NCBI GenBank assembly: GCA_021324975.1
Contig: JAJPIA010000069.1
Span: forward strand, 5,020 to 69,019
Length of the DNA stretch: 64,000 bases
From: Bacillota bacterium
Lineage (GTDB): Bacteria > Sysuimicrobiota > Sysuimicrobiia > Sysuimicrobiales > Segetimicrobiaceae
Direction: 5' to 3'
A program made the position numbers and the translations under genes. Of this stretch, positions 14,205 through 40,205 are shown piece after piece; within the stretch, counting starts at the first letter, position 1, and every line of letters begins with the position of its first letter. A model generated the notes under the pieces. That model did not search any database and had not been told where the DNA came from. It saw only the letters and a list, made by a program, of their open reading frames with translations.

Positions 14205-14292
14205 CGGCCTCCGCCTCCGAAGCCTCCCGGCGCGAGCTACGTTGTGCCACGCGAGAGTTCAATGGGCCGGTTTCCGAATCCCCTCCGGAGGA

Positions 14293-15054
14293 TCACTGTT
14301 CAAACGTGACGACCGCGTAGCGCGTGAGGTCGTTCACCGTTTGCCCCGTAGAGAGGCGGGCCTGGTCCCAGCCATGCGCGCCGGTGCCCGGAGGCACGGT
14401 GATGATCCCGACCAGGTCGCCGTTTCGCGAGTCGACGACCGCCGACCCCGCAAGCCCCAGCCCTGCGACCTCGAGGCCGTAGTTTCCCTCCGCATCCGAG
14501 ACGAGGACGCCGCGGGGCGCGATCCGTTGGCCCGCGGCAGTTGCCGGCAGCGAGACGGGAATCGTCTGCGTCGCGCCAAAGTCCGCGTACATCGAGCACG
14601 ACCGGCACAACTTGTTGTACGAGGCAGGCCGGCTGCTGAACGACGCCACGAGCGATACGACATCGCCCATCCACGCGAGGTTGTCGACGGTTCCCGCCGT
14701 ACCGTCGGCGTAACGCACCGTGATGTCAACGCCGAGACGGTTGAACGGGACCCCGGTCGCAAGCGGCGTGGCCACGAACGGCGCCAGGCAGCGCTTCGCC
14801 GTCGCCACGTAGGCGCGCGGGTCCCGGACTGTCACGACGATCCCGAGACAGCGCGCGGGTGCTCCGCGGCCGTGGCTCCGCACGATAACCTGAGCTGTGA
14901 TCGCGCGAAGGAGGTACGTGTCGGAGACGCTCGGAAACGCCTGCCCCTCCTGGGTCGCCATCGCGCTCATCACGAGACCGAGGAGCACCGCGAGCGCCCG
15001 CCGCGTCGCACCCGCGAGGCTCGGCATCATTGGCGGGGTCGCCCTGGAGTTCAT
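14293..15054 (-). CDS. Secreted trypsin-like (S1/PF13365-like) peptidase-domain protein, possibly non-catalytic (K-R in place of catalytic His)
   Basis: Signal peptide; C-terminal GSAVVDSRNGDLVGII resembling G-x-S-G-G-P-L-V-N-x-x-G-E-V-I-G-I; ATAKRC where TAAHC is expected. Confidence 0.4.
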   Translation of the reverse strand: MNSRATPPMMPSLAGATRRALAVLLGLVMSAMATQEGQAFPSVSDTYLLRAITAQVIVRSHGRGAPARCLGIVVTVRDPRAYVATAKRCLAPFVATPLATGVPFNRLGVDITVRYADGTAGTVDNLAWMGDVVSLVASFSSRPASYNKLCRSCSMYADFGATQTIPVSLPATAAGQRIAPRGVLVSDAEGNYGLEVAGLGLAGSAVVDSRNGDLVGIITVPPGTGAHGWDQARLSTGQTVNDLTRYAVVTFEQ

Positions 15055-16079
15055 TTCTGGCCCCCGGGATCATGTCCGCCGGACCCGCCGGTGCCGCCCG
15101 GCGGCCCGTCGGCCGAGCCGCTGCCCGGGCCCGACGTGTCCTCGTTCGGCAACGAACTGCCGAGATTCGCGCCGCCCGGCGCGGGACCTTTCCCGGGCGC
15201 GCCGGTGGACGGGGAGCTCGAACCGCCGGATGCCTTCGAGCCCCCGGAGCGGCCCGCGGCCCCCGCGCCACCCGGCCGCCCCGATTCACTTGCCGTCGCC
15301 GGCGCCCAACCGCCGGAGCCAGCCCCCGCCGCCGAAGCCTGCGCGGAGGCGGAGACGCCGCCCATCCCGGTGCTTCCCGTCGCGCTCGTGTGTCCGGAGG
15401 CGTTGGCCGAGGTCTCGCCGGCGGGCGCAGCCGGTTGGGTTCCGCGGTTCGCGCCCGAGTTGGCGACCCCGGTCGGGCCCGCTGCTCCCGACGCGTTGAT
15501 GTTGCCCGGGCCCGCCCCGCTCTGCGACGGCGCCCCCGCGGTGACACCCGCCGCATCGCCGGCTCGGCCACTTCCCTCACCGGTAGAGCCGCTGCTCGAG
15601 GCGGACGCGGACGTCCGCGGCACCGTGTCGCCCACACCCGAGCCGACCGACGGGTCCCACGCAGGCACAGTCGCGAACCCCGCGGGCGGCGGTGTCACGA
15701 TGCCCGACGGCAACGTCGCGCTGGACCGCCTGGGCCCGGGCACGATGTCGAGCGGAACCGTTTGGGGCACCACCGCCGGCAACCGGTGCGCCGGCGCGGC
15801 GCCGCGGACACGGGTAGCTGTCGGAGCCGGCCGCGCCTCCGCGGTGACCGCGACCTGCCAAGACGGCAGAATGGAAAAAAACGGTGTGCCCGGCGCGACC
15901 GCGATGAGCGATGCCGCAACCAGGAACGCCGGCGGTGCCGCCGAGAGTCTCGCCACCGAGAGCCCCCCTCCAAGCCCAAGGTGATCGTGTCGCTGCCGGT
16001 AGCGCTCCACCGGTCCGGCGACCCGGCCTCGGGCTGGACCTAGAGGCCGGCGGGCCGGGCGCCGCGCACGGGCCTCCAC
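15051..16079 (-). CDS. Membrane-anchored low-complexity Gly/Ser/Ala-rich protein (start uncertain)
   Basis: N-terminal hydrophobic segment then G/S/A-rich tail; ATGA overlap with downstream peptidase-like gene; competing Pro-rich antisense ORF shares wobble positions. Confidence 0.35.
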   Translation of the reverse strand: MEARARRPARRPLGPARGRVAGPVERYRQRHDHLGLGGGLSVARLSAAPPAFLVAASLIAVAPGTPFFSILPSWQVAVTAEARPAPTATRVRGAAPAHRLPAVVPQTVPLDIVPGPRRSSATLPSGIVTPPPAGFATVPAWDPSVGSGVGDTVPRTSASASSSGSTGEGSGRAGDAAGVTAGAPSQSGAGPGNINASGAAGPTGVANSGANRGTQPAAPAGETSANASGHTSATGSTGMGGVSASAQASAAGAGSGGWAPATASESGRPGGAGAAGRSGGSKASGGSSSPSTGAPGKGPAPGGANLGSSLPNEDTSGPGSGSADGPPGGTGGSGGHDPGGQK

Positions 16080-16170
16080 TTACCCGTACCCGCGGCCGGT
16101 CGCAGTCAATCTCCTTCACATTGGCACACTTCGCCGCTCAACAGATCCAAGCGACGTGCCGCGGATGCCG

Positions 16171-17550
16171 CTACAGGCGATTCAGTCCGTTTAGAGCAGC
16201 GACCTTGTAGGCTTCGGCGAGCGTGGGATAGTTGAACACCGCGTCACGAAGATATTCGACCATGCCCTGCTGGTCGATCAGCGTCTGTCCGATATGCACC
16301 AGTTCGGTGGCGCTCTGCCCGAGGATATGGACGGCGAGCAGCTTCAGGGTGTGGCGATCAAAGAGCAGCTTCAGGATGCCGGACCGGCCGCCGCTGATCT
16401 GCACGCGCGACAACTCCCGAAACGGCGCCACGCCCACCTCGTACGGAACGGACCGTTCCGTGAGGTCCCGCTCGGTGGGACCGATCATGGCGATCTCGGG
16501 AAAGGTGTACATGCCGTACGGCAGATTCGGCGGCAGAGCCGGCGCGTCGACCCCAAACGCGTGCAGCGCCGCGAGCCGGCCCTGCTCCATGGATGTGGAC
16601 GCGAGGCTGGGGAAGCCGATGATGTCACCTGCCGCGTAGACTCCGGGGCAGGCGGTCTGAAAGTGTTCGTCCACCTTGATACGGCCGCGACGGTCGGTCT
16701 CCACGCCGATCGCGCCCAGGTTGAGCGTGGGCGAGGCGCCTTCCCGGCCCGCGGAAAACATCAACGACTCGGTCGTGAAGCTCTTGCCGCTCTCCAGCTC
16801 GACGAGGACACGCCCGTTTTCCGTCGTTCGCACCGCCGAGACGCGCTCACCGAAGCGCAGCGTGATCCCCTCGTCCCGCATGTGGTAGTACAAGGCGTCC
16901 TGAATCTCGTCATCGACAAAGTCGAGCGGGCGGCGGCGCGCGTCGACCAGGACCACCTGCACGCCCAGCACCTGGAAGATCGTCGCGTATTCCAGGCCGA
17001 CGACGCCGGCGCCGACGAACGTCATCGAACGCGGGATCTCCTGCAGGCGGAGCAGCCCGTCGCTGTCGATCACCCGCCGGTCGTCGAACTCGATGTCCGC
17101 GGGGCGGCCCGGGACCGTGCCGACGGCGATCACCGTCCGCTGCGTTCGCAGGCGCCGCTGGCCGTCGGCCGTCGTGACGAGGAGTTCGTGCGGCTCCACG
17201 AAGCTCGCCGTGCCCGCGATGATATCGACGCGATTGCGGATCAGTTGATCGCGGACGATGTGCGCCTCGTTTTCGATCACCCGCTGCGTTCGAAACGTCA
17301 GATCATCGATCGTAATCTGTTCCTTCACCCGGTGCGCCGCACCGTAGACGGAACGCTGCCGGATACCGGAGAGGTAGGCGACCGCTTCGCGCAACGTCTT
17401 GCTGGGAATGGTGCCTTGGTAGAGGCACCCGCCGCCGACGTCGGCGTTGCGCTCCACCACCGCGACACGCCGGCCCATCTTGGCGGCCGCGATCGCGGCT
17501 CGCTGCCCCGCGGGGCCGCTTCCCAATACCACCAGCTCGTACTCGTTCAT
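16171..17550 (-). CDS. sthA: Soluble pyridine nucleotide transhydrogenase (Si-specific NAD(P)+ transhydrogenase)
   Basis: Pyridine nucleotide-disulfide oxidoreductase fold with single-Cys motif GGGCLYQGTIPSK (no redox disulfide), ~459 aa, C-terminal dimerisation domain. Confidence 0.8.
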   Translation of the reverse strand: MNEYELVVLGSGPAGQRAAIAAAKMGRRVAVVERNADVGGGCLYQGTIPSKTLREAVAYLSGIRQRSVYGAAHRVKEQITIDDLTFRTQRVIENEAHIVRDQLIRNRVDIIAGTASFVEPHELLVTTADGQRRLRTQRTVIAVGTVPGRPADIEFDDRRVIDSDGLLRLQEIPRSMTFVGAGVVGLEYATIFQVLGVQVVLVDARRRPLDFVDDEIQDALYYHMRDEGITLRFGERVSAVRTTENGRVLVELESGKSFTTESLMFSAGREGASPTLNLGAIGVETDRRGRIKVDEHFQTACPGVYAAGDIIGFPSLASTSMEQGRLAALHAFGVDAPALPPNLPYGMYTFPEIAMIGPTERDLTERSVPYEVGVAPFRELSRVQISGGRSGILKLLFDRHTLKLLAVHILGQSATELVHIGQTLIDQQGMVEYLRDAVFNYPTLAEAYKVAALNGLNRL

Positions 17551-22241: not shown

Positions 22242-23216
22242 ATGCGGTCTCGAGACGGGACCGACAAGGCACTGGAGTTTCTGGCGCGGCTCGCCCGGGA
22301 ATTTGTCGCGGTGCTGAGCGTGACACATCTCGTGGCGCGCGTCCTGGAGGGCCTGCGCGAGGCGGCCGGATTCGACTCGGCTGCCATCGCGCTCATCGAC
22401 GAGCGCAATCCCGACCGCCTCACGGTCGTCGGCGCCGCCGGGCTTTGCGCGCACCTGCGCGACACGACGATCCCCCGCGACGAGAGCATGTGGTGGGCCG
22501 CCGTCGACGCCGCGGCCCCGCTCCGCGCCATGGACATGCGGCAGGATCCGCGCGTGTGGAGCCGCCGCGACGACGTGGGCGCGGGCATCTACGCGCCGCT
22601 CCTTGCGCACGGGCGCGCCATCGGGGCGATGAGCGTCCAGCGCTCCGGAGAGCCCCCGTTCACCGGCGACGATCTCGATCTCCTGTCCCTGCTCGCGTCC
22701 TACCTCGGCGGTGTGTTCGAGGCTGCCCGAACGCACGAGCGCGTGGCCGAGCTCGCCTTTGCCGACCCGCTGACCGAACTGCCCAACCGCCGCGCCTTCC
22801 TGGATCGGGTGGGCGTGGAAGTGCTCCGCAGCGCGCGCACGGGCCAGCCATTCAGCATCGCGCTCGTGGATGTCGACCGGTTTAAACGCGTCAACGACCG
22901 GTACGGGCACACGACCGGCGACGCCGCCCTTCGCAGCGTCGGGCAAACGATGCGCCGGCAGACGCGCAGCTACGATCTCGTGGCCCGGTACGGGGGAGAC
23001 GAATTTGCACTGTTGTTCCCGAATACGCCGGGCAAGATCGCGCAGATGATCCCAACGCGGTTTTGGCAGATTCCGATTGCCGGTGGCGCGGCGCCCGCCG
23101 AGAGCTACGTCACCCTCTCCTGGGGAATTGCCGCCCACCCGGACGACGGCGATTCGGCCGATGGACTCCTCAACGCCGCCGACGGACGATTGTACGCGAT
23201 GAAGGGCACCCGCTAA
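22242..23216 (+). CDS. GAF-domain diguanylate cyclase (intact RYGGDEF)
   Basis: GAF-like N-half, GGDEF C-half with RYGGDEF; GGAGG SD upstream of ATG. Confidence 0.85.
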   Translation: MRSRDGTDKALEFLARLAREFVAVLSVTHLVARVLEGLREAAGFDSAAIALIDERNPDRLTVVGAAGLCAHLRDTTIPRDESMWWAAVDAAAPLRAMDMRQDPRVWSRRDDVGAGIYAPLLAHGRAIGAMSVQRSGEPPFTGDDLDLLSLLASYLGGVFEAARTHERVAELAFADPLTELPNRRAFLDRVGVEVLRSARTGQPFSIALVDVDRFKRVNDRYGHTTGDAALRSVGQTMRRQTRSYDLVARYGGDEFALLFPNTPGKIAQMIPTRFWQIPIAGGAAPAESYVTLSWGIAAHPDDGDSADGLLNAADGRLYAMKGTR

Positions 23217-28070: not shown

Positions 28071-29111
28071 TCAGCGGCCGGCCACGCGGGAGCCGCCGTG
28101 GGGCTCGCAGTCCGGAAGCCGACCGTGCTGCGCCTTCATGTGGTACAGACGGAAGTCCGCGGCCAGCAACAGCTGGTCCACGGTCGGGCCGTCGGCCGGC
28201 CACGTGGCGCTTCCCCACGAAACGTCCAGCCCGCCGTGTTGCGTGAGGGAGTCCGGGAGTGCGATGCCTGCGGCGACGTCGCGGTCAATGACCGTCCTCG
28301 CCCCGGCTTCATCCGTGTCCGGCAGCAACAGGGCGAACTCGTCGCCGCCGTAACGTGCCGCCAGATCGCTTCCCCGGCGGTCGGCGCTGAGCGCCCGTCC
28401 GACCGCCACGAGAACCTCGTCGCCGACGCCGTGGCCGCACGTATCGTTGATCCGCTTGAACCCGTCGAGGTCGAGGAGCACGACGGTGACCGGGCGCAGC
28501 GTGCGCTCCGACCGGGCGATCTCTTGCTGAAACCGCTCCATAAAGGTGCGGCGGTTGGCGATGCCCGTCAGGCTATCCGTCGCGGCCGCGTTCTTCAGGG
28601 CGTCGTGCAGCTGGCTCACCTCGACGGCGCTGGCGATGTATCGGGCCACCACGGTCAGCAAGTGAAGGTCCGGCTCGCGAAAGGCGTCAACCTCGGGGTG
28701 GTACGCGCTCAACACCCCGATCGACCGGCTCCGGCAGACGAGCGGCGCGTAGATGCCCGCGCGGACGCCGGGGTCCGTGTGCACCACGCGGGGGTCCGCG
28801 TGGAGGTCCGGCACGATCAGCGCGGCTTGGCGCTCCATGACTTCCCAGATCAAGCCATGCCCGCGGGCGAACCGCAACCCCGTCGCACCCGCCCGCAGGC
28901 CCGATCCCGCCTTGACGACCAGGACGTCCTCGCCCCTGTTGGTCTCCAGGAGCGATACGGCGCACGACTCGAAGCCGATGGCATCGTCCACGGCGCGGAT
29001 AATGTGCTGTAAGAGCACGGGAGCGTCGAGCACGGCGGACATTTCCGTCGCCAGGCCCGCCAGAAACGCGAGCAATCGATCCGACTCGGCGCCCTGCGGT
29101 TGAGCCGTCAT
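28071..29111 (-). CDS. GAF-domain diguanylate cyclase (intact RYGGDEF), paralog of 22242..23216
   Basis: ATG at 29109-29111 (residue 22 of ORF 28071..29174); GAF + GGDEF with RYGGDEF. Confidence 0.8.
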   Translation of the reverse strand: MTAQPQGAESDRLLAFLAGLATEMSAVLDAPVLLQHIIRAVDDAIGFESCAVSLLETNRGEDVLVVKAGSGLRAGATGLRFARGHGLIWEVMERQAALIVPDLHADPRVVHTDPGVRAGIYAPLVCRSRSIGVLSAYHPEVDAFREPDLHLLTVVARYIASAVEVSQLHDALKNAAATDSLTGIANRRTFMERFQQEIARSERTLRPVTVVLLDLDGFKRINDTCGHGVGDEVLVAVGRALSADRRGSDLAARYGGDEFALLLPDTDEAGARTVIDRDVAAGIALPDSLTQHGGLDVSWGSATWPADGPTVDQLLLAADFRLYHMKAQHGRLPDCEPHGGSRVAGR

Positions 29112-29970: not shown

Positions 29971-30393
29971 ATGGGCGAGCGAGCGCCGGTCCACGGTGAG
30001 CTGAGCATCAAGACACGGCGGCTCCAGACCGTGACCCTCATTGCCGTACAGGGAGAAGTCGATCTTGCGAATTTCCAGACCCTAGGGAGCGTCCTTGGCG
30101 CCGCGGTCGGCGGGGACTCTCCGGTACTTCTTGATCTGACGAAAGTCCGCTATATCGACAGCACCGGGTTGGGTTTGCTGCTGCGAATGCACGAAGACTG
30201 TCACGCCAAGCGCATTCCGTTCGTCGTAGCTGCTAACCCGTTGGTCCGCCGCATCTGCAATGTGCTGTCGCTTCAGACCGTGGTTCCGATCTTCGACCAT
30301 GTCCGCTCCGCCCGGGCGCATCTCGAGGCGGTGCAGGCGCGGCACGGCCAGGACTGGGCGGACGTGGACGCGTCATTGACCACCGAGGAGTAG
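29971..30393 (+). CDS. STAS-domain protein (anti-sigma-factor antagonist, SpoIIAA-like)
   Basis: STAS features (DLTKVRYIDSTGLGLLL), ~140 aa. Confidence 0.7.
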   Translation: MGERAPVHGELSIKTRRLQTVTLIAVQGEVDLANFQTLGSVLGAAVGGDSPVLLDLTKVRYIDSTGLGLLLRMHEDCHAKRIPFVVAANPLVRRICNVLSLQTVVPIFDHVRSARAHLEAVQARHGQDWADVDASLTTEE

Positions 30394-30744
30394 ACAGCCG
30401 CACGACGGCCAATCGTCCGGATCGCCGTTGTCGCCGATCCTTCCGGCCATGTACATGGGAAACTTCAGCGTCTGACGGCCGTCTTTGAGATACGTGGCCC
30501 AATCCTCCCTCAGCAGATGTGCGCGAATCCCGACCCGCGCCAGATCGTTGGCGATGGCGGTGCCGATGTCTTTGCCGTTCGGAAAGTACGGGCGGCTCAC
30601 CGGGATGTACCAGAAGTCGGTGGAGAAACCGTTGGGGTATCCGGCTTCGGCCAGGAGCTTCTTCGCGCCGGCCGGGTCGTACGGGTACGCCCGCACGGTA
30701 GGTGAGCGGCCCCACATCACGCGGACGGTGGCGGAGTCCTCCAT
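30373..30744 (-). pseudogene. Remnant of an ABC substrate-binding protein family 5 (DppA/OppA-like) gene, C-terminal region only
   Basis: 123-aa ORF matching the conserved C-terminal region of SBP_bac_5 (YDPAGAKKLLAEAGYPNGF ... MYMAGRIGDNGDPDDW) without the ~350-aa N-terminal portion. Confidence 0.5.
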
Positions 30745-30882
30745 TCCTCTTCAGTCGCGCTGACAGGACGAAGGGATTGCATTTGGTTCAGAGGAATAGC
30801 CCATCTTGCTTCGGGGTTTCTCCACTGTTTGATTTGCGTAGCAAGGTAATGGCTTCTCAGTCGCCGTCAAGGAGGGAGCAGC

Positions 30883-31146
30883 ATGAGTCTTCTCGCTTGG
30901 CTCGTCGTCGGGATCATAGCAGGATGGCTCGCGAGAATGGTCGTGCCGGGTGAAGGTCCCGGGGGTATCATTGGCGACTTGATTATCGGCATCGTTGGCG
31001 CGTTCATCGGCGGATTTATCTTTAGAACCTTTGGGCACACCGGTGTTACCGGTCTCAACATCGGCTCCATCATTGTTGCTTTCATTGGGGGCGTGATTCT
31101 GCTGTTGATTGTCCGCGCTGTGACGGGGAAACGAGCCAGGGCCTAA
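30883..31146 (+). CDS. GlsB/YeaQ/YmgE-family stress membrane protein (transglycosylase-associated protein)
   Basis: 87 aa, Gly-zipper TM pattern (MSLLAWLVVGIIAGWLARMVV...); AAGGAGGGAG SD; gene and flanks are lower GC than the surroundings. Confidence 0.85.
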   Translation: MSLLAWLVVGIIAGWLARMVVPGEGPGGIIGDLIIGIVGAFIGGFIFRTFGHTGVTGLNIGSIIVAFIGGVILLLIVRAVTGKRARA

Positions 31147-31528
31147 GCCTCGACGCTTCGCGCCTCATCAGAGGGTCCGCGCACCCGGCTCCTCTGCATT
31201 TACATTTGCGTTGGAACTAGTACACGGTTGCGGTATTTCGGCAAGGGTTGGAGCCGGACGGGCGTCGAACGCCCGCTGCGGCCAGGACCGCTCGGCCCCC
31301 CTCTACCTTCGTCGCACAGTAGCGACGAAACACTAGCGTACCCCGCGGGTGGCCCCCAAGTGTCGCCGCCCGTGCTGGGCTCGACCCGCTTATCGCCAAG
31401 CGTCGGTTCCGTGACGGCTATTGTGCTCCCGTCTTACACGAATAGCGCGTCAAGTCTCTAGCCCTCCACCTACGACTATCGGCGCGTTGTCACCCAAGAT
31501 GACGTCAATTGCGGCGTGCAACTCGTCG

Positions 31529-31557
31529 TTGACACGCGGGGCCGGCGTGCACATAAT
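31529..31557 (+). promoter_or_regulatory. Sigma70-like promoter: -35 TTGACA (31529-31534), 17-bp spacer, -10 CATAAT (31552-31557)
   Basis: Read in sequence; ~30 bp upstream of the giant-gene start (GTG 31587; SD GGGAGG 31572-31577). Confidence 0.5.
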
Positions 31558-31565
31558 GTGTGCAC
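31547..31565. promoter_or_regulatory. Perfect palindrome GTGCACA-taatg-TGTGCAC overlapping the -10 element (putative operator)
   Basis: Seen in sequence; 7-bp arms, 5-bp spacer, centred on the -10/TSS. Confidence 0.45.
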
Positions 31566-31586
31566 CGCGCAGGGAGGTTGAGACCA

Positions 31587-34500
31587 GTGGACGCAGCGGC
31601 GATCGCGGAGGCGCTCGACCAACTCACCGGATCGTGGGCGCCGGAGGGCGCGGCGACGGCAACGGACCTTGCTGAAGCGCGCCAGTACCTTGCGCGGGCG
31701 CTCGCAAGCGGCGTCGCCGCCGGCGCGCTGCACGCGGTTCCCGATCTTCGCACTCCGCCGCCGTCCGGGGCGCGCCCGCTCATCGACGCGATCGCGCAGC
31801 GCGTGCAACCCGAGCCCGCGCCGATGGTCGTGCCGTACCTTCGCCGCGCCACCGACATCGATCCCAGGATCGGGGCCGGCGCGGCGGGGATGGCGGTGTC
31901 GAAAACCCTGGGTCCGTTCGTCGACGGTTTCGGCGTCCCGCACTGGATCGATCTCATCCCGCTGCCCAGGAAGATCCCGATCTCGAGCGCGACACGCGGG
32001 ATCCTCGGCTACCTGATCACGACGGCCCAAACCGCGACCACGCTCGGGGCGGGGAGCGTGTGGGTGAGCGTGGGTGCGCTCAACGTTCCGGCGGCTCCCT
32101 CCGGAGCCGTCGGCGTGTCATTCTCCGGAGGCACCGTCAAGAAGACCGGCGCGGTCACCGCGTCCCCGAACGGCATCACCATCGCGGCCGGCGGCGCGCT
32201 GTCGCTCACGTTGACGCTCGCGCCGCCCGTGCCGCAGCCGGGCAATCCCGCTGTCGGCCGGGACGCGCGCCAGATGACGCTTGCGCTCCCGGCGCAGGTG
32301 GTCGTAGAGTTCACCGCGGCCGGCGCCGCGTTCGTGACGATCGCGCCGTCGTCTGCGACCGTCTACGGCGCCACGGTCGAGTTGAAGCGCAACGCGCTCA
32401 AGCCGCGTCTCGTCACTATCGGCCTGGACTGGGTGCTCTTCCCCTGCGACGTGTCGGCCGCCCAGTTTGCGTTCGCGTCCGTCCTCTCAACCGACGTCGT
32501 CCCGTCGGGCGCTGCTCCGATCAACGCGGGGGGATGGGCGCTCGCGATCACCACGGCGCAGGCCTCCCAACTCGGAAATGCATCGAGCGCGGGCAGCCTC
32601 GTCCTTGAGCTCGGCGGCGGGGTCACCCTGCAGTTCGGGGACCTCGCGTCGCCGCTTGGGCTGGCCCGCGCGACGCTCGGCCTGGCGCCGGGCGTTATCA
32701 CAATCGCCGCGACCACCGGTGGACGCGACGTCGTCGATCCGCTGGTGCTGTGGGACCCCGCCCCGACGCCGCCGTCGGTGCTGCCCGCCCCGGCGAGGCA
32801 CCCCTCGCAGATCGACTTCCGAATCCCGCGCGGCGGAGCGGTGTTTGCGGTCGAGACGACGACCCAAGAAGTCGCCGCGGCGTTCGGCAGCGCGCGCGTG
32901 AGCGTCGACCGCCCGCTTGGCGCCGACGGAAGTCGCCTCGGGATCGCGTTCGGCTCGGCGGCGCTCGCGTTTATCCGCACCGCGGCAGCAAGGCGCGCCT
33001 ACGCGGTGATGTCGCAGGCCACGGCCGGCGGGCGCGTCGCGATCGCGCTGGAGAACGGCTTAGTGCAGGCGAGCCCTCCGCAGGCGGGTGTCATGAGCGC
33101 GACGTACTCGGGCACGCGGCTCGCGGGCACGCTGGCCCTGACGTTTACTGATCCGCAGCTGCTTCCGACCCTGCCCGACCCGTACGCGGCCGCGAACGCG
33201 GCGCCGGTGCCTCTTCCCGCAAGTCTCTTTTCCGTGGCCTCATGGACGCTCACGCCGGGCGCGGCGCTGCGCTTCTTGATCGGCTCGGCGTCACAGGCCC
33301 AAGTGACGGCGGCAACCGGCGTGGCACCCGTCCCCGCGGACGCAGCAAGGCGGGCGGGCGGGCTCGCGTCGGGCACCACGCTTCTCGATCTCTCGAGCAA
33401 CGCCGATCAGTTCGGCCTGAGCCTCGGCCCCGCCAGAGAGGCGGCGAGCGTGGCCGCGATCGACAAGATGGCGGTGACGATGCCGCTGGGCCAGCTCACT
33501 GTCTACGCGCTCCCCGGGATCTCGTGGGAGCCCGTGGTGGACCAGACCACGAACGACTGGCTGGACGCGCCGTCGTCCAACGACGGCCCCCCGGTCGGGC
33601 TGCGCGCGTTTCCGACGAGCGTCACCCTGGTGCGCACCGAGCCCGCGGCGCTCCTGCCGGCGTTTGCGCAGGCGAACGGAGCCTACACATTCGGGCAGTT
33701 CACGCTCCCGTTCGGCCTCATCGCGTCCCTCTACACAAACCCGAACACGCCGCAGGCGAAGCGTCCCTCCTACGCGCTCATCAAGGCGAGCTACCCGAGC
33801 GGCCTCGACGCCTCGCGCCAGCTCTCGATCCGTGCGACCGGGACGATCGCAGTGGGCGATCCGGCGCTGCCCGGGAGCACCACGACCGGCTCGCCGCTCC
33901 CGGTGCCGCTCACCAGCACGGTGTACGGCGTGCTGACGCTCGGAAACGATCCGCTGGGCGCCGCGCAGTTCTTCGATCAGCAGTTCTCCGCGTCCGGCGT
34001 GTACCCGCAGATCCCGGTCACGCGCATCGACATCTCGGGCTACGGCACGAGCATGTTCTCCGACTGGAAGAACGACGACTTCGGCACGAGCGACCCCGTC
34101 CACGGGATCGTCGGGGTCGTGCGGGCGCGGTTCGACGTGCTCGTGGGGCGCACGTCGTACGAGCTCGTGCAGATCGCCACGGTCATCGCGCCGTGGTGCA
34201 TCCGGATCACGCGCACCATCATCTTCGATCGGTACGACAGCGGGCTCGTGGTCCGGCACGACACGGGCTGGAAGGCGGTCGGGAACGGCGAGTTCGCCCT
34301 GCTCGGGGTGGATCAGCGCCTCCTCGGGGCCATCGTCCGCCTGGAGAACATCCACAACATCGCGGTGGGCACGGGCCCGGCGATCTCGTTCACCTCGCCG
34401 GACGTGCACGAGCCCGTCCCTCCGTCCGAGACGCCTCCGTCGCAACCCACGCCGCTCAGGCAGATCGAGTTCGTCCCCGTCACATTCGACGCGGACGTCG

Positions 34501-36224
34501 TGATGAGCCCGGCAGTCACGGCCTCGACGAACGGCAGCGTCGCGCCCGCGGTCGCCGCGACGCAGATCACCGGCTACGCGCAACGGACCGTCGGCCAGGT
34601 CGCAAGCGCCCTCGAGATTCTCGGGTTGATGCAACGCCTCCCGGACGGCGTGGCGGGCTCGCTCGGCTGCATCGTCAACGTCGGACCGGCGCCGTCTGCG
34701 GGGACGCCCAGATTCACGCTGAACGTCTCGGCCCTCTCGGTCAAGGTCACGAGCGCCAACGTGGCCGGCCAGGGGTATCCGGCGCTCGCCGTCGCGCTGC
34801 ACGGGGCGCCGCGCCTGCCGCGCGACGGCGCCTGGAGCATCACGCGCCGGGGCAAGACCGATGTGGCGCCCACTGCCGTCGACCCGACGTTTCCGCTGCC
34901 GCTCATCCTCGGCACGAACAACGACAACAACCCGCAGTGGCGGCTCCTCGACCCGAGCGACGCGCTCTCCGTGCGCGGCCCTGCCACCGTCTTCGGATTG
35001 ATCCAGGGTACCGGCACTTCGAAGAGCCTGTTCGAGAACCCGGTCGTGACCACGGCCGGCCAGGCGCTGTCGCTCGACCCCGCGGACGGCGTGCCGGCCC
35101 CGAATCTCGCCGACATCGGCGCCCTGCTCGGCGCGGTCGATATCTTCCCGAACCTGGGGAACGTCCTCCGGATCCCGACCGGCGCCGGAGACGTGCTGAC
35201 GCTGGCGCAGGACGGCTTCGCGAGGACGTTCGCGTGGCGGATCGAGCAGTCCCCGAACACGCCGATCGCCGATCAGCAACTGCTCGACCTCGGCGTCGTG
35301 AGCCTCGTCCTCCAGTATCACGGTCCGGACCCGGCCGGACACGACGCCGTCACGCAGGCGACCTTGACCATCGACGCCACGGCCGCGCCCGGGTCGCCCC
35401 GGTGGGCAGTCCAGCTGCAGTACCTGAGCTTTGCGGTGCTCGTCGCGGGGTTCGGTCCGGACCCGCTGCTCACGATCCACGGCGACTTCTCCGCGAGCGA
35501 GACGAAGAAGGCCGGATTCGACAACATCGCGGTCGCGTACGGCAGCGCGCTGTCGCCCGTCACGAACATCATCAGCGGACTGACCACCCTGGTCGAGGCC
35601 TTCGGGGGCGCCGTCGATCTCGACGTGGGCTTTTCCGACAACAAGCTCACGGTCCACGACGGGTTTGCGCTGCCCACGCTGCCGCTCGGGCTTGGCCAGG
35701 TCGAGGACATCGCCATCGACCTCGGGGTGTCCATCACCATCCCGACGGACGCGAGCTTCAGCGTCGGGCTCGGGAGTCAGGACAAGCCGTTCACGTGGAT
35801 CGTGGACCCGCTCGCCGGGACCGGCGCGATCGTGCTCGGGACGACCGGCGGAAATCTGGGCGTCTACATCGAGGCGGGAATCGGCGCGGCGCTGGCGATC
35901 GACCTCGCGGTCGCATCGGGCAGCGCGTCGATCGTGCTCGAGCTGAGCATCTCGACCAACGTCAGCCCGCTCGCGCTGACGGCGGCGCTGGTCGGTAACG
36001 CGAGCGTCGACGTGCTCGACGGGCTGGCGAGCGCGTCGCTGACGCTCGCGGCGGCGATCACGATCGTGCCGCTCGGGATCGCGCCGGATCACCCGCTTCC
36101 GAACGCGGTCGAGTTCACGGGCGCGGCCGCGGTGGGCATCCACATCAGCATCGCCTGGGTCGTCAGCGTGGACTTCGACGGCTCGTGGGCGCTCACCGAG
36201 ACGTTTCCGCTGCATCTGCCATGA
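31587..36224 (+). CDS. Giant hypothetical protein (~1545 aa), Ala/Gly/Val/Leu/Thr/Pro-rich, no recognisable motif, no signal peptide
   Basis: GTG start 9 nt after GGGAGG; continuous ORF; codon pattern typical of the host (G-rich position 1, GC3 high); first of a two-gene operon. Confidence 0.7.
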   Translation: MDAAAIAEALDQLTGSWAPEGAATATDLAEARQYLARALASGVAAGALHAVPDLRTPPPSGARPLIDAIAQRVQPEPAPMVVPYLRRATDIDPRIGAGAAGMAVSKTLGPFVDGFGVPHWIDLIPLPRKIPISSATRGILGYLITTAQTATTLGAGSVWVSVGALNVPAAPSGAVGVSFSGGTVKKTGAVTASPNGITIAAGGALSLTLTLAPPVPQPGNPAVGRDARQMTLALPAQVVVEFTAAGAAFVTIAPSSATVYGATVELKRNALKPRLVTIGLDWVLFPCDVSAAQFAFASVLSTDVVPSGAAPINAGGWALAITTAQASQLGNASSAGSLVLELGGGVTLQFGDLASPLGLARATLGLAPGVITIAATTGGRDVVDPLVLWDPAPTPPSVLPAPARHPSQIDFRIPRGGAVFAVETTTQEVAAAFGSARVSVDRPLGADGSRLGIAFGSAALAFIRTAAARRAYAVMSQATAGGRVAIALENGLVQASPPQAGVMSATYSGTRLAGTLALTFTDPQLLPTLPDPYAAANAAPVPLPASLFSVASWTLTPGAALRFLIGSASQAQVTAATGVAPVPADAARRAGGLASGTTLLDLSSNADQFGLSLGPAREAASVAAIDKMAVTMPLGQLTVYALPGISWEPVVDQTTNDWLDAPSSNDGPPVGLRAFPTSVTLVRTEPAALLPAFAQANGAYTFGQFTLPFGLIASLYTNPNTPQAKRPSYALIKASYPSGLDASRQLSIRATGTIAVGDPALPGSTTTGSPLPVPLTSTVYGVLTLGNDPLGAAQFFDQQFSASGVYPQIPVTRIDISGYGTSMFSDWKNDDFGTSDPVHGIVGVVRARFDVLVGRTSYELVQIATVIAPWCIRITRTIIFDRYDSGLVVRHDTGWKAVGNGEFALLGVDQRLLGAIVRLENIHNIAVGTGPAISFTSPDVHEPVPPSETPPSQPTPLRQIEFVPVTFDADVVMSPAVTASTNGSVAPAVAATQITGYAQRTVGQVASALEILGLMQRLPDGVAGSLGCIVNVGPAPSAGTPRFTLNVSALSVKVTSANVAGQGYPALAVALHGAPRLPRDGAWSITRRGKTDVAPTAVDPTFPLPLILGTNNDNNPQWRLLDPSDALSVRGPATVFGLIQGTGTSKSLFENPVVTTAGQALSLDPADGVPAPNLADIGALLGAVDIFPNLGNVLRIPTGAGDVLTLAQDGFARTFAWRIEQSPNTPIADQQLLDLGVVSLVLQYHGPDPAGHDAVTQATLTIDATAAPGSPRWAVQLQYLSFAVLVAGFGPDPLLTIHGDFSASETKKAGFDNIAVAYGSALSPVTNIISGLTTLVEAFGGAVDLDVGFSDNKLTVHDGFALPTLPLGLGQVEDIAIDLGVSITIPTDASFSVGLGSQDKPFTWIVDPLAGTGAIVLGTTGGNLGVYIEAGIGAALAIDLAVASGSASIVLELSISTNVSPLALTAALVGNASVDVLDGLASASLTLAAAITIVPLGIAPDHPLPNAVEFTGAAAVGIHISIAWVVSVDFDGSWALTETFPLHLP

Positions 36225-36290
36225 GAGCGCAACACATACTGGTCCACACCGTAGGCCGCGAATTCCTGGGGTGGCGTGGGAGGGAGCACG

Positions 36291-39200
36291 GTGGCCGATA
36301 ACCTGCGTCTCGTGGTCATGACGTTCCCGCAGCGCTGGGATCCGTCCGCCGCCACGCTCAGCGTCAACGCGCTCCTGGTACCCGCCGTCAGTCCGATCGA
36401 CGACCCGCTCGTCGGCAGCGCCCTCAAGTTCGCCGATCACGTCCCCGACCTGCGCGCGGTCGTGATCGGCAGCCTCGACGTCACGCCGAAGAGCACCGAT
36501 CCGACCGCCGCGCGCATCGTGCCGGTGATCGTCAACCCGCAGCCCGCGGCGGCGCCGCGTCCCGGCTACAACAAACTCATCGCCCAGGCGCAGGCCGGCG
36601 CGGTCACGATCTCGGGCAGCGGCGCCCTCGCCGGGCCGGCGTCCTCGACGATCCGAAAGGCGCTGCCGCAGTCGTACCTCGATGCCGCCGGCGCCGCGCC
36701 GGGCGGCGCCACGGCGACAACCGACGAGTTCGGCTGCGCGATCCGCGGACAGACCGGCTATACGGCCCAGCCGCCGGCGCGGACGACCGGGTGGGGACCG
36801 ATCCTCTCGTACGCGCTCAGGCAGCCCGTCCTTGCCACCGCCCTCGGCCTCCGCTACGAGCTGCAGGTCAAGCTCGCGGACCCGGCCGTGTTCGCGGGCG
36901 GCGGGTGGCTGTTCATCGAGATCGCCGCGGGCGACCCCTGGGCCCAGGCGGCGACCCCCGGGCAGATCCGCCTTTACGCCGGACGGCTGCCGGCACTGGG
37001 CGCGGCCGCACGGCAGTTGTTCGCCGCGGTGCTCTTCCCGGTCGACGCCGTCGGCGCGATCGACGACGCGGCGTTCGGCGTGGCGGAAACCTACGACGAC
37101 GGCTTCGCCAAGATCGTCCACCTGTACCAGCCGCAGGCCAACGACGCCGTGATTGGTGACAACGCCGGCATCCCGGCCGCGACCGACGCGGGGGTGCAGA
37201 TCGGCTGGGACGACGAGCAGGTCGTCGCCTGGCAGAACGGCCAGATCCAGATCATGAACGACCGGTTCGCCGGCAAGCTCGACGCGCAGACGCCGCTCGG
37301 GGTGCTCGGATACCGGGTCGATGTCGCCGACGTCACGGCGAACCCGTCGACGCCGGCGTGGCACTCGCTCGTCCCCGCGGATGTCGAGCTGCCGCAGGGC
37401 TTCGGGCACTTCACCGGCGAGCTCGCGATCGAGCCGACCGCGCTGAGACCCCAGGACCCGTCCAACCCGTCGGCCGTGAGCGGGGACGCGTGGCTCCCCC
37501 GCTACTTCGCCAACTGGCGGGGGGGCTCGCTCGTCGTGGCCGATCCGGTGCCAAAGGCGATGCTCGACGCCGCGCCGATCACCGCCACCCCGGATCCGGT
37601 CGGCGTGTTGCTCGCCTACGGACGCAGCTACGCGTTCCGCGTGCGTCTGGCCGACCTGACGAACGGGGGTCCCGCCGCCGACGACCACGCGATCAACGCC
37701 GGGCAGGCCGGCGTGGCGAGCCTCGATTTTCTTCGCTGGGTGCCGCCGAAGAAGCCGGGGATCCGGCGCGACATCCCGAGCGGGGCGACGATCCCCGAGG
37801 CATTGACGTTCATGCGGCCGCTCATCGGGTATCCAGAGGCGCTCTACACCGCGCTCGGCGACACGGACACGCATCGCGGCCAGATCGTCGAGTACTTCAC
37901 CAAGAACGCGCACCCGGGAAGCGGCGTCGTGGTGGGCCTGCCGGATCCGGACGTGGACACGCTCGAGATCACGATTGAGGTGCGGACGCCGCTGCACGAC
38001 GTGGCGGGAGACGGCGTGCTCGACACGCCGTTCCGCGAGCTGTATCGCGCGACGCGTCCGTTTCCGGCGCTGCCGTCCGGTCCGCTCCCGGCGGATCCCG
38101 GCCTTCGCGTCGACCTGGCGTATGTCGACGCGGCGTCGATCGTCGACTGGGCGCCGTCACAGCCGGCGACCGGGCCGCTCGTCCTGCCGCGGGCGCGGGA
38201 CGTGCGCATCACCGCGCGCGCGATCGGGCGAAACGATCCAAGCTACTTCGCTCCGCAGGCCGCGACCGGGCTGCCGGCGTCGCTCATCCTGCGCGCCGAG
38301 GCCCGGCAGGAACCTTCGCTCCTCGTGAGTCCGGTCGACGGCAGTTCACCCCTGCGCGGGATCCTGTTCAAGCGGCCGCCGGGCGTCGACGCGCCGCCCG
38401 TCGCGGCCCAGCTGGCGGAGGAGCTCGGCCTCATCGCCGACGGCCTCACGCTGGCCGCGCCTCCGGGACGCCGCGTCGTGTTCGGCGCCTCCAAGGCGCT
38501 GCGCCACGCGTTGCCCGGCGACAACTCGACGATCACGTTTGCCGCGGAGAGCGAGCTGCTGCGGTATTGGGTCGCCGTGCTCGTCGTCGATCTCGAGCGC
38601 GACTGGACGTGGGACGGTCTCGCGAACAACAGCACCGTCACCGTGGAACGCGACGGGACCACGGTCGGCAGCCTGCGCGTCGCGCGCACGCTCGGAGCCG
38701 CCGCGGTCGCCGATCCCGCGAACTGGGACCGGCGGCGGACGCGGCTCGTGTTCTTCGACGCGGTGGACCCGCACGAGCAGACGTCGAGCGGGTTTCCCGA
38801 GGCGCTCACGCACACGTGGACGCTCTCGGCCGCCATCGTGACGGAGACCGGGCCGCAGGTCGGCGTCTCCGGATCCCCCGCGCTGAAGCCGGGGGCCGTT
38901 CCCGAGCCCGCGGCGGCCGACCTGAACAACGCCGGCCAGACCGTGACGCTCCCGATCGCGGTCCCACCGGCGCAGATCCCCTCGATCGCCTCGGTCGGGC
39001 TGGCGCTCTCGCCGTTCGAGGCCGGCCCGGGATACGCGACCACGGCGCCGCGAGCCCGCGCGCTCTGGGTGGAGCTCGCGGCGCCGGTGGCGAACGCCGC
39101 GGGAGACGCCCTGTTCGCGCGAGTGCTCGGGCACGGCGCCGATCCCCTCCTGTACGACGCGCAGCCGAGGACCGAAGAGAGCGCGGAGCCGCCGCTCACC

Positions 39201-40205
39201 CTCGATCCCGAGCTGATGCGCGTCATCACCCCCGGGGAGAGCGACGACCGCGCCGGGCTCTCCGCGATGACGCAGCTCGAACGCGCCAGCGACTCCAACG
39301 TACACTTCCTGCTGCCCCTTCCGCCGGGACTGGACCCGGGCGATCCCGAGCTCTTCGGCTTCTACACGTACGAGCTGCGCATCGGCCATGCCGGGGATGC
39401 TCACGATCACCGCTGGTGGTCCACCGCGCAGGGACGGTTCGGCCGACCCATCCGGGTCAACGGCGTCCAGCATCCCGCGCCGCCGCTGCCGTGCCGCGCC
39501 GGACGCCTTCGCCTCGTGCTTCCGGTCAAAGGCGGGGCTGCCGCCTCGCCTGTCACGCCGTTCCGCATCCCCGCGCAGTTCCTCGATTCGGCGGCGGCGG
39601 CGGTCCGCGCTGCGACGGCAGGTGCCACGCTCACCGCCCACGCGGCATTGCGCCTCGCGTCGCTCGTCGTCGCCACCGCGACGTACGCAACCCCGGTCCT
39701 CGATGGCCGGCCGCTCGTCGGCCCCAATGAGGCGCCGAGGACGACGCTGTACTTCTTCCTGTACGCGCAGGTCGTCCAGGCCGACGGGGCGTCCAACCGC
39801 AACGTCCTGCTGTTCCAGCGCGAGGGCACGTTCTTCGGTCCCGCGCTCGGGGCCGCCGGACGAGCGAGATTCTCCGCGAGCCCGCCGTCGCAGCGCGACC
39901 GCGTCGGCGGCACCGTCTTCACCGAGGTGGAGATCGAAGCCCGGCTGCAGCAACTGGGTCTTCCGGTCGATCTCCCGCTCAGCGTGCTCGCGGTCGAGCT
40001 TCTGCCGGGAGGCGTCGGCAGCGACCTCCCCGCGCCGCGCACGTTCGCGGCACGGCCCGCGGGCGCAGCCACACCTGCCGCGGAGGGGACCACGGCGTCG
40101 GCGGCCGCCGCAAGAGAGCAGAACCCCGACCCGCTCGGCCTCAACAACACGCCACGCCGGATTCTGCGCGCCTCAACGCTGGTCCAGGTCGCCGCGATTT
40201 GCTAG
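36291..40205 (+). CDS. Giant hypothetical protein (~1304 aa), partner of 31587..36224, no recognisable motif, no signal peptide
   Basis: GTG start after GGGAGGGAG SD; 66-bp gap from upstream giant gene; ends ...RILRASTLVQVAAIC. Confidence 0.7.
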   Translation: MADNLRLVVMTFPQRWDPSAATLSVNALLVPAVSPIDDPLVGSALKFADHVPDLRAVVIGSLDVTPKSTDPTAARIVPVIVNPQPAAAPRPGYNKLIAQAQAGAVTISGSGALAGPASSTIRKALPQSYLDAAGAAPGGATATTDEFGCAIRGQTGYTAQPPARTTGWGPILSYALRQPVLATALGLRYELQVKLADPAVFAGGGWLFIEIAAGDPWAQAATPGQIRLYAGRLPALGAAARQLFAAVLFPVDAVGAIDDAAFGVAETYDDGFAKIVHLYQPQANDAVIGDNAGIPAATDAGVQIGWDDEQVVAWQNGQIQIMNDRFAGKLDAQTPLGVLGYRVDVADVTANPSTPAWHSLVPADVELPQGFGHFTGELAIEPTALRPQDPSNPSAVSGDAWLPRYFANWRGGSLVVADPVPKAMLDAAPITATPDPVGVLLAYGRSYAFRVRLADLTNGGPAADDHAINAGQAGVASLDFLRWVPPKKPGIRRDIPSGATIPEALTFMRPLIGYPEALYTALGDTDTHRGQIVEYFTKNAHPGSGVVVGLPDPDVDTLEITIEVRTPLHDVAGDGVLDTPFRELYRATRPFPALPSGPLPADPGLRVDLAYVDAASIVDWAPSQPATGPLVLPRARDVRITARAIGRNDPSYFAPQAATGLPASLILRAEARQEPSLLVSPVDGSSPLRGILFKRPPGVDAPPVAAQLAEELGLIADGLTLAAPPGRRVVFGASKALRHALPGDNSTITFAAESELLRYWVAVLVVDLERDWTWDGLANNSTVTVERDGTTVGSLRVARTLGAAAVADPANWDRRRTRLVFFDAVDPHEQTSSGFPEALTHTWTLSAAIVTETGPQVGVSGSPALKPGAVPEPAAADLNNAGQTVTLPIAVPPAQIPSIASVGLALSPFEAGPGYATTAPRARALWVELAAPVANAAGDALFARVLGHGADPLLYDAQPRTEESAEPPLTLDPELMRVITPGESDDRAGLSAMTQLERASDSNVHFLLPLPPGLDPGDPELFGFYTYELRIGHAGDAHDHRWWSTAQGRFGRPIRVNGVQHPAPPLPCRAGRLRLVLPVKGGAAASPVTPFRIPAQFLDSAAAAVRAATAGATLTAHAALRLASLVVATATYATPVLDGRPLVGPNEAPRTTLYFFLYAQVVQADGASNRNVLLFQREGTFFGPALGAAGRARFSASPPSQRDRVGGTVFTEVEIEARLQQLGLPVDLPLSVLAVELLPGGVGSDLPAPRTFAARPAGAATPAAEGTTASAAAAREQNPDPLGLNNTPRRILRASTLVQVAAIC

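Follow-up and report, generated by a model that had tools for sequence, protein, structure and literature searches.

A horizontally exchanged pair of giant beta-rich bacterial proteins that resembles no characterised family, possibly the core of a machine acting on the cell envelope

Two adjacent giant genes, A and B, lie in the 64,000-nucleotide stretch of bacterial DNA analysed here (the window), and neither product has a counterpart among characterised families, whether judged by sequence or by overall fold. The two proteins co-evolve and move between phyla as a unit. Together they amount to ~290 kDa of strongly constrained protein that is exchanged among more than 10 phyla and that none of the domain, defence, phage and structure libraries tried recognises. 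Our preferred, though tentative, reading is that the pair may form the stripped-down centre of a two-protein machine, autonomous and horizontally mobile, that acts on the cell envelope or a membrane, either by perforating it or by delivering proteins. The genes and their signals are arranged as follows.

31529..31557, + strand: sigma-70-like promoter candidate TTGACA-17-CATAAT, 11 of 12 consensus matches, 30 nt upstream of the A start; a consensus match only
31571..31577, + strand: Shine-Dalgarno AGGGAGG of gene A, read from the sequence, ending 9 nt before GTG 31587
31587..36224, + strand: gene A, GTG start, 1545 aa, 157 kDa, pI 4.8, predicted almost all beta-sheet, no signal peptide seen
36225..36290, + strand: A-B spacer of 66 nt, containing the Shine-Dalgarno GGGAGGGAG (36278-36286)
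36291..40205, + strand: gene B, GTG start, 1304 aa, 136 kDa, pI 5.3, no signal peptide seen

On the plus strand the two ORFs in their longest form are 31560..36224 and 36276..40205. Translation from GTG 31587 and GTG 36291, the starts proposed in the earlier note, gives products of 1545 and 1304 aa that are identical to the database gene calls P0001 and P0033, and each gene indeed lies behind its own Shine-Dalgarno. Because the promoter candidate ends 3 nt before the upstream GTG 31560, GTG 31587 is favoured as the start of A; one such promoter site was found against 0.5 expected in shuffles. No Rfam element was found upstream of A, and no terminator-like site in the spacer. The lower-GC patch described upstream of the pair (61% GC at 30000-31500) and the convergent GH31 gene and sugar ABC genes described downstream are both present.

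The GC content by codon position is 0.68/0.55/0.90 in A and 0.74/0.55/0.90 in B and is uniform over the full length of each gene. Very long chance ORFs do arise at 70% GC, such as the 1568-aa antisense ORF 33291..37997 with its shadow pattern of 0.92/0.52/0.68, and on that ground A and B might be taken for high-GC artefacts or decaying pseudogenes. That reading is refuted, and keeps practically no probability, by a GC3 of 0.90 throughout both genes, full-length homologues in many phyla at 25-69% identity, the conserved A-B order and the Shine-Dalgarno sites. The genes are thus genuine, as first judged from codon statistics, and they are intact in relatives. A and B share one reading frame in the window, whereas the frames are unequal in relatives and the gap there is typically ~10-20 nt; they are therefore two genes, and a single gene split by a stop codon is ruled out. 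Comparison of A with B by hhalign found them unrelated, so they are not paralogues.

Relatives of B were found in 166 of 185,579 species genomes from more than 10 phyla, monoderm as well as diderm. The A-then-B order across phyla supports the operon proposed by the earlier note: all ~80 loci with enough upstream DNA, among them those on plasmids of Bacillus toyonensis and Tistrella, have an A homologue directly before B on the same strand, so that the two are a syntenic pair wherever this could be checked. Over 1953 locus pairs, the pairwise identities of A track those of B (r = 0.95). Near-identical pairs turn up in different phyla: Udaeobacter and Solibacteraceae copies are 80% (A) and 82% (B) identical, and a Planctomycetota MAG and Mycobacterium share 77% identity in B. 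Carriers include Bacillus toyonensis, Streptomyces, Nonomuraea and Mycobacterium. The cultured ones (Bradyrhizobium, Acidisoma cellulosilyticum, Roseateles saccharophilus DSM 654, Mycobacterium sp. OTB74, Bacillus toyonensis DC11, Tistrella mobilis, Paludibaculum fermentans, Nonomuraea and Streptomyces) make the pair directly testable. A tblastn search of 50,697 phage genomes with B and a profile scan of 2.9 million viral contigs both came back empty, and the pair is accordingly not phage-borne.

The claim that neither protein has recognisable domains was borne out, with 0 matches at E<=1 for A and B in Pfam, NCBIfam, PADLOC (PADLOC-DB v2) and PHROGs. A weak-match Pfam scan (E<=0.1) of 31 A members gave nothing recurrent; one member had a marginal match to the spike beta-helix trimerisation domain (E = 0.063). 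Profile searches of PDB sequences with full B, the A alignment and the alpha/beta module of B returned noise only, and no characterised adhesin, phage tail or toxin scaffold was found to match either protein over its full length; such a match is what the earlier note had named as counting against its proposal. Literature searches by theme and by accession yielded nothing relevant to the pair. Walker A, HEXXH and CxxC motifs are absent from A and B, and no meaningful tandem repeats were found, the single DNA repeat being insignificant. The composition had also been read correctly (A+G+V+L+T+P+S make up 68% of A, K 1.2% and C 0.2%), and the beta-rich structure deduced from it agrees with the AlphaFold models of A (residues 346-1545, pLDDT 77, pTM 0.63) and B, which consist almost entirely of beta structure.

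The C-terminus of A is private to the family and carries its signature element.

35544..36221, + strand: C-terminal signature element of A, residues ~1320-1545, modelled as a hydrophobic helix (1320-1338) followed by ~12 long antiparallel strands

In the AlphaFold model the helix spans 975-993 and the strands 997-1198 (model numbering), at low confidence (pLDDT 45-60). Hydrophobic and small-polar residues alternate strictly along the strands in an alignment of 63 sequences, and the hydrophobicity period of residues 1345-1545 peaks at 2.0-2.1 only, a pattern that a soluble sheet with one packed face would show as well. A gp5-type beta-helix is ruled out by the missing 8-residue period. In the low-GC Bacillus copy, the polar face of the strands is rich in K and E, which would suit the lumen of a putative barrel and a surface exposed to solvent equally well. 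When 1.84 billion representatives were searched exhaustively, the element stood at the extreme C-terminus of every full-length protein (~1350-1700 aa) among the top 150 matches; the many shorter matches are probably fragments. Furthermore, this C-terminus is among the most conserved regions of A rather than variable, which rules out a polymorphic toxin.

At the other end, the N-termini of window A (MDAAAIAEALDQL...) and Bacillus A (MKIENIARKLAEL...) have no hydrophobic leader, and no signal peptide is apparent by eye in the N-termini of the window pair or the Bacillus toyonensis pair. An FHA domain, the sole Pfam find among the unusually long A and B homologues, is fused in-frame at the N-terminus of one A homologue, and this fusion is of cytoplasmic type. 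At the level of sequence, the signal-peptide-less copies and the FHA fusion support synthesis in the cytoplasm.

The AlphaFold model of B is a compact stack of ~6-7 Ig/FN3-like beta-sandwiches with one alpha/beta module, and two of its regions carry conserved motifs.

36603..37325, + strand: alpha/beta module of B, residues ~105-345, with motifs FGCA.RG, DDGFAK.VH and GIQIGWDDEQV
40155..40202, + strand: C-terminal tail motif of B, RILR(A/T)S.L..V....C, the last residue of window B being the invariant Cys; C1196 invariant

Across 91 sequences from many phyla, K123, C149, H277 and D308 of the module are invariant and D307 is near-invariant (at least 90%). The Cys falls within a helix and the His within a strand of the AlphaFold model; this placement, together with the invariance, makes a Cys-His-Asp centre possible, and the module may by inference be catalytic. 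For comparison, papain/transglutaminase-like cysteine hydrolases bring together in space a Cys on a helix and a His and an Asp on the strands after it. No sequence relative of the module was found in the PDB. Window B has only three cysteines (149, 1068 and 1304), in FGCAIRG, LPCRAGR and the C-terminus, all of them family-conserved; the tail Cys is not always terminal, having 1-12 further residues behind it in some copies from actinomycetes and Bacillus.

The dominance of Ig/FN3-like domains in B, the beta-rich and acidic character of both proteins, and the UniRef naming of some B homologues merely as fibronectin type-III domain proteins would suit a passive role, structural or at the surface, without any activity of a machine-like kind, for example as an adhesin, an S-layer-like coat or a storage assembly. 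We consider this very unlikely. Signal peptide, anchor, sorting motif and tandem repeats are all missing, and the models (pTM 0.63-0.65 for A and B) indicate a predicted architecture that is compact and multi-domain rather than fibrous. B is 35-45% identical across phyla, from Bacillus to Acidobacteria, with ~85 invariant positions including all its cysteines, which is unusually constrained for an adhesin, and the cytoplasmic-type FHA fusion also speaks against a surface protein.

No conserved third gene and no small upstream or downstream ORF accompanies the pair, and among the two nearest downstream ORFs of ~70 loci no family is common to more than two loci. In most loci, the window included, no accessory gene follows B. 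Where one does, it can encode a hydrolase or carry TIG or peptidoglycan-binding domains: B is followed by Nal1-like, TIG, PG_binding_1 and PLD domains in L006, by PG_binding_1 and PLD in L026, by PG_binding_1 in L091, and by a pro-kumamolisin/S8-S53 peptidase with TIG domains in L092, the closest relative of the window. The TIG domains of L092 are 39-44% identical to that of L006, and no signal peptide was seen in the two N-termini read from the TIG-tagged S53 protease and phospholipase D neighbours.

In other lineages the added genes are of phage-tail type. Sheath, tube or Hcp genes directly follow B in L020, L024 and L025, and a sheath fragment lies near L046. Of ~75 distinct loci, 4 from unrelated lineages have sheath and/or tube genes adjoining the pair, and in three of the four they are on the same strand and start at the end of B or within ~50 nt of it, the start in L024 being approximate. 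These neighbours, the marginal trimerisation match in one A member and the FHA fusion (FHA proteins regulate T6SS assembly) would fit A and B as extremely divergent baseplate and spike equivalents of a reduced contractile sheath-tube injection system for which sheath and tube would as a rule be encoded at some other genomic site. We regard that as improbable. Sheath, tube and Hcp are missing from most loci and, by tblastn, from the 64-kb window, and no other contractile-system parts were found with PHROGs and Pfam among the unknown genes around the sheath- or tube-bearing loci. Neither A nor B matches gp25/TssE, gp6/TssF, gp7/TssG or gp27-gp5/VgrG, although these folds are in the PDB, and the A C-terminus does not have the periodicity of a spike beta-helix. 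In L025 the sheath carries a fused tube domain, an arrangement not easily squared with a contractile tail that works, and the absence of the pair from the phage genomes and viral contigs counts against this reading as well.

The main rival is an anti-phage pore-forming system acting by abortive infection, in which B would be a large Ig-rich sensor or activating protease and A a latent pore-former that would perforate the cell's own cytoplasmic membrane from inside. The patchy distribution over phyla with clear horizontal transfer would suit it, as would the amphipathic hairpins of A and the invariant Cys, His and Asp of B; the absence of signal peptides and the presence in monoderms and diderms would suit action inside the cell. 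Some loci border integrases or a resolvase, toxin-antitoxin genes, an ABC-three-component gene and IS elements, and ~8 of 140 nearest downstream ORFs match defence models (DpdF, PsyrT, AbiEii, a type I MTase, ThsB-TIR, Cas3-like, IetA and mad3). However, PADLOC has no match to A or B, most neighbourhoods, including that of the window, hold ordinary metabolic genes, the accessories (peptidoglycan-binding PLD, S53 protease, sheath/tube) appear to act outwards rather than in defence, and the combined size is unusual for such systems. A defence role is accordingly possible but unlikely; if it were true, the pair would represent a new effector architecture.

In the envelope-acting machine that we prefer, A and B would form a stoichiometric complex whose working end would be the A C-terminus with its hydrophobic helix and ~12 amphipathic strands, which may either oligomerise or enter a membrane as a beta-barrel-like element. 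B, as a compact sandwich stack around its alpha/beta module, may scaffold, gate or process A. The same-strand genes after B in some lineages (TIG-tagged S53 protease and phospholipase D proteins, peptidoglycan-binding proteins, and orphan tail sheath/tube genes) would be cargo or accessories, carried or passed across the envelope by the core, and the window copy would be a minimal version without one. The label 'structural/effector-like or cell-envelope-associated' from the earlier note is compatible with these findings. Several observations weigh against the machine: neither protein was found to be homologous to a known secretion, injection, toxin or pore-forming system, most loci have no accessory gene, release or lysis genes are not conserved, the A C-terminus is modelled at low confidence, its period-2 pattern would also suit a soluble sheet, and the K/E-rich face of the Bacillus copy would also suit exposure to solvent. 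A membrane-perforating or protein-delivering device would be a new kind of machine among bacterial secretion, injection and pore systems, whatever the envelope type. The bolder proposal, decidedly unlikely in our estimate, is that A-B forms the core of a previously undescribed protein-translocating or envelope-perforating class that would be Sec-independent, serve monoderms and diderms, use TIG domains to bring in hydrolase cargo that has no signal peptide, and in some lineages have taken over orphan sheath/tube proteins of phage type; if true, two beta-proteins of roughly 150 kDa each would make up a new secretion or injection system.

Among known systems, fibrillar adhesins and S-layer proteins differ from the pair by their secretion signals, cell-wall or membrane anchors and tandem domain arrays. 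In contrast to alpha-2-macroglobulin and complement C3-like multi-MG-domain proteins, B has no thioester motif (CxEQ), signal peptide or lipobox, and its model lacks the helical thioester domain (toroid). Type V secretion (autotransporters and two-partner secretion), characterised in part by a C-terminal helix with a 12-strand transmembrane beta-barrel, differs in several respects: the pair has no Sec signal peptide and no Pfam autotransporter or ShlB/POTRA match, the helix of A is hydrophobic rather than hydrophilic, and carriers of the pair include Bacillus, Mycobacterium and Streptomyces, none of which has a Bam-type outer membrane. Contractile injection systems (phage tails, eCIS and T6SS) share sheath, gp19-type tube and Hcp genes after B in the same operon in a few lineages, neighbours of PLD and peptidoglycan-binding type that resemble typical effectors, and the FHA fusion on one A homologue, whereas the pair has no baseplate, spike, tape-measure or ATPase homologues. 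The gasdermin fold was not found in A or B; bacterial gasdermin and protease operons share with the pair proteins that lack signal peptides and whose amphipathic beta-hairpins might open a pore from within the cytoplasm, a partner gene with a possible Cys-His-Asp centre, and a patchy, mobile distribution. Finally, the Tc (ABC) toxin complexes combine a TcA translocator with a TcB-TcC cocoon, and neither the Rhs/YD-repeat cocoon nor the TcA-type shell with its helical channel was found in the pair. They do share with it operons of very large signal-peptide-less proteins, horizontal mobility, hosts among soil and insect-associated bacteria including B. cereus-group plasmids, and enzyme cargo encoded beside a large delivery scaffold.

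The pair of genes A and B is a real, intact, co-evolving and horizontally mobile two-gene core without a characterised relative. The two consecutive plus-strand ORFs read in the earlier note, with starts at GTG 31587 (A, 1545 residues, to 36224) and GTG 36291 (B, 1304 residues, to 40205), are identical to the public gene calls P0001 and P0033. The sequence AGGGAGG lies 9 nt upstream of GTG 31587, and GGGAGGGAG precedes GTG 36291. The longest ORF forms span 31560..36224 and 36276..40205 on the plus strand, and a sigma-70-like site (TTGACA-17-CATAAT, 31529-31557, 11 of 12 consensus matches) ends 3 nt upstream of the upstream GTG. Long chance ORFs arise in the window because its DNA is ~70% GC, and they can be told apart from real genes since their codon-position GC differs. 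The values for A and B (GC3 0.90 and GC2 0.55) are uniform over both lengths, and the mirror pattern is found in one ORF across the A/B junction:

33291..37997, minus strand: antisense ORF of 1568 aa, codon-position GC 0.92/0.52/0.68

This ORF was ruled out as a gene, its codon-position GC being the shadow of the real genes. A and B are read in one frame in the window. Relatives have them in different frames, typically with only ~10-20 nt in between, which makes them two genes.

More than 870 cluster-level relatives of B were identified, and 166 of 185,579 species-representative genomes carry the gene. Among the carriers are Acidobacteriota, Actinomycetota, Alpha-, Beta-, Gamma- and Deltaproteobacteria, Planctomycetota and Eremiobacterota, together with Dormibacterota, Verrucomicrobiota, Chloroflexota, Bacteroidota and Myxococcota. 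Several of them are cultured, which opens A-B to experiment. When HMMs of both families were run on 87 fetched loci, an A homologue immediately preceded B in the same orientation wherever the locus held enough upstream DNA. B is megaplasmid-borne in Bacillus toyonensis, Tistrella, Microvirga and Chlorohelix, and the plasmid copies checked keep the A-then-B order. Full-length homology to A at 33-36% identity was found by BLASTP in Bradyrhizobium and Mycobacterium. A and B co-vary in pairwise identity over 63 loci (r = 0.95), with mean identities of 31% for A and 42% for B. Pairs ~80% identical are shared across phyla, as between Udaeobacter and Solibacteraceae and between a Planctomycetota MAG and Mycobacterium, and the module therefore moves horizontally. 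Loci L054 and L055 (Verrucomicrobiota and Acidobacteriota) and L026 and L006 (Planctomycetota and Actinomycetota) are 77-82% identical, which indicates recent transfer between phyla. Mycobacterium sp. OTB74 carries two divergent copies in one genome (L008 and L034, with B ~39% identical), one of them flanked by an integrase and a resolvase. The pair on Tistrella mobilis pTM1 (L089, 7276-15648) has RelE/RelB and HipA toxin-antitoxin genes on its flanks; its A may be frameshifted, since the annotated protein is only 1230 aa long and B is preceded by ~1 kb of DNA without annotation. Neither phage genomes nor viral contigs contain A-B.

The earlier note had seen no recognisable domains, no catalytic motif and no obvious tandem repeats in either protein, and a composition rich in Ala, Gly, Val, Leu, Thr, Pro and Ser and poor in Lys, Glu and Cys; all of this holds. 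Pfam, NCBIfam, PADLOC and PHROGs gave no match to A or B at E<=1, neither protein contains Walker A, HEXXH or CxxC motifs or a meaningful repeat, and the composition is as described. Neither family is represented in these four collections, not even as a DUF in Pfam. A low-stringency scan of 31 A members gave no recurrent match, profiles of both families matched no PDB sequence, Foldseek against viral models returned TM-scores of 0.1 or less, and A and B are unrelated to each other. Literature queries by theme and accession found nothing on A-B within an incomplete coverage, and with this coverage we place the pair, whose function is putative, outside all known kinds of system.

Protein A is almost wholly beta in the AlphaFold2 prediction, and the model of residues 346-1545 is usable (pLDDT 77, pTM 0.63). 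Its conservation peaks at residues 800-925, with the motifs RIDLSGYG.S.FS.W, FDV.VGRT and R.DSGW, and in the last 200 residues. In the model, the C-terminus consists of a hydrophobic helix (1320-1338) followed by ~12 long antiparallel strands, in which large hydrophobic residues alternate with G/S/A/T/D/N/Q among 63 sequences; the dominant period is 2.0-2.1, and no 8-residue period was found. When this 247-residue element was searched exhaustively by HMM against 1.84 billion representatives, 1092 proteins matched at E<=0.001. In the best 150 of the 1092, the full-length proteins (about 1350-1700 aa) have the element at the extreme C-terminus, many shorter matches are most likely fragments, and the element so far appears private to the A family. 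AlphaFold confidence is low here (45-60) despite the high conservation, as might be expected for an oligomeric or membrane-embedded segment. No signal peptide was found in A or B, in either the window or the Bacillus copies. One actinobacterial A (L070, 4542-9980) carries an in-frame phosphothreonine-binding FHA domain at residues 32-95, with A homology from residue 181 onward, and this fusion argues for a cytoplasmic N-terminus.

In the AlphaFold2 prediction, protein B stacks about 6-7 beta-sandwiches compactly, and its residues about 105-345 form an alpha/beta module, for which the PDB sequence-profile search found no relative; the model of a full-length homologue of 1196 aa is usable (pLDDT 82, pTM 0.65). 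About 85 positions are invariant among 91 sequences. The only three cysteines of the window protein (149, 1068 and 1304) are exactly the conserved ones of the family, two of them invariant and C1068 at least 90% conserved, and the tail motif RILR.S.L..V....C forms the protein end in most members. C149 lies in a predicted helix, H277 in a strand, and D307/D308 where the next conserved strand ends, an order reminiscent of Cys-His-Asp hydrolases that makes these residues a candidate centre. A passive structural role, which the Ig content would fit, is at odds with the compact fold, the invariant cysteines and the absence of export signals, and we hold it to be improbable.

In a minority of loci, putative accessory genes accompany the pair. 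Three loci (L020, L024 and L025) have tail sheath and/or gp19-type tube genes downstream of B in the same orientation, and a sheath fragment is found near L046; by a rough reckoning, four such neighbours in about 75 loci are far above chance. In L025, a single 763-aa ORF (13892-16183) directly after B fuses three tail-sheath domains to a T4 gp19 tube domain; an Hcp gene (16264-16758) comes next, and there are no baseplate or spike genes nearby. These operons make it tempting to see in A-B a divergent baseplate or spike of a reduced contractile system. No other parts of a contractile system are detectable around the four loci, and the role, which fails every fold and periodicity test run, has in our view little chance of being correct. 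The window pair is most closely related to that of L092 (63% identity in A, 69% in B), where a pro-kumamolisin/S8-S53 peptidase with TIG domains (13843-16148) starts 15 nt after B. The next gene after B in Mycobacterium L006 (13646-17287) encodes Nal1-like, TIG, PG_binding_1 and phospholipase D (PLD) domains, and PG_binding_1 with PLD is found in Planctomycetota L026. The TIG domains of L092 and L006, from two distant lineages, are 39-44% identical and may serve as an adaptor to the core; no signal peptide was seen at either N-terminus. PG_binding_1 proteins also adjoin the pair in L091 and L011, other same-strand followers include a tectonin/beta-propeller protein and Ig-rich proteins, and one locus has a giant RTX protein on the same strand ~1.2 kb downstream. 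The window has none of these accessory genes.

Taken with its optional neighbours, A-B can tentatively be read as an envelope-directed device, which we hold to be the likeliest of the readings although at less than even odds. A and B would form a complex, the private amphipathic C-terminus of A would insert into a membrane or oligomerise, and B would scaffold, gate or process this element. The TIG- or peptidoglycan-binding-domain hydrolases and the sheath/tube proteins would be its cargo or accessories.

The wider neighbourhood is variable. Even the closest relatives of the window have other genes around the pair, and neither a conserved third gene nor a conserved small ORF on either side was found. 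All-against-all clustering of neighbours reached a maximum of 7 loci, for a generic dehydrogenase, and the 140 nearest downstream ORFs, about 8 of which match defence models, share no Pfam family in more than two cases. Some loci adjoin integrases, a resolvase, toxin-antitoxin genes, an ABC-three-component gene or IS elements; others, the window included, have plain metabolic neighbours. These defence genes would be better explained by the main rival reading, an abortive-infection system whose A protein would perforate the membrane of its own cell, and this rival would account for the missing signal peptides and patchy distribution as well as an envelope-directed device does. It explains the outward-looking accessory genes worse, and we regard it as rather unlikely. 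The remaining probability falls to something other than these four readings.

In the window, the convergent GH31 gene directly after B, the sugar ABC genes downstream and the lower-GC patch upstream are all present as the earlier note had described them, the patch having 61% GC:

30000..31500: lower-GC patch, GC 0.61 against about 0.70
about 29971-30393: STAS gene, inside the patch
about 30373-30744, minus strand: SBP_bac_5 solute-binding protein fragment of 123 aa, inside the patch

The fragment is probably a gene remnant, 440 nt of non-coding DNA within the patch precede A, and the patch may be a junction from a past rearrangement or insertion. Between the STAS gene and A, an ORF at 30883..31146 (plus strand) encodes an 87-aa glycine-zipper membrane protein that, judged by eye, looks like the GlsB/YeaQ/YmgE stress-protein family. 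Further upstream, GAF-GGDEF diguanylate-cyclase-type genes at 22242..23216 (plus strand) and 28071..29075 (minus strand) flank MFS and ABC transporters.

The defining features that we tested of Tc toxins, contractile injection systems, autotransporters and gasdermin operons are absent from A-B, and the pair resembles each of these systems in individual features of design.
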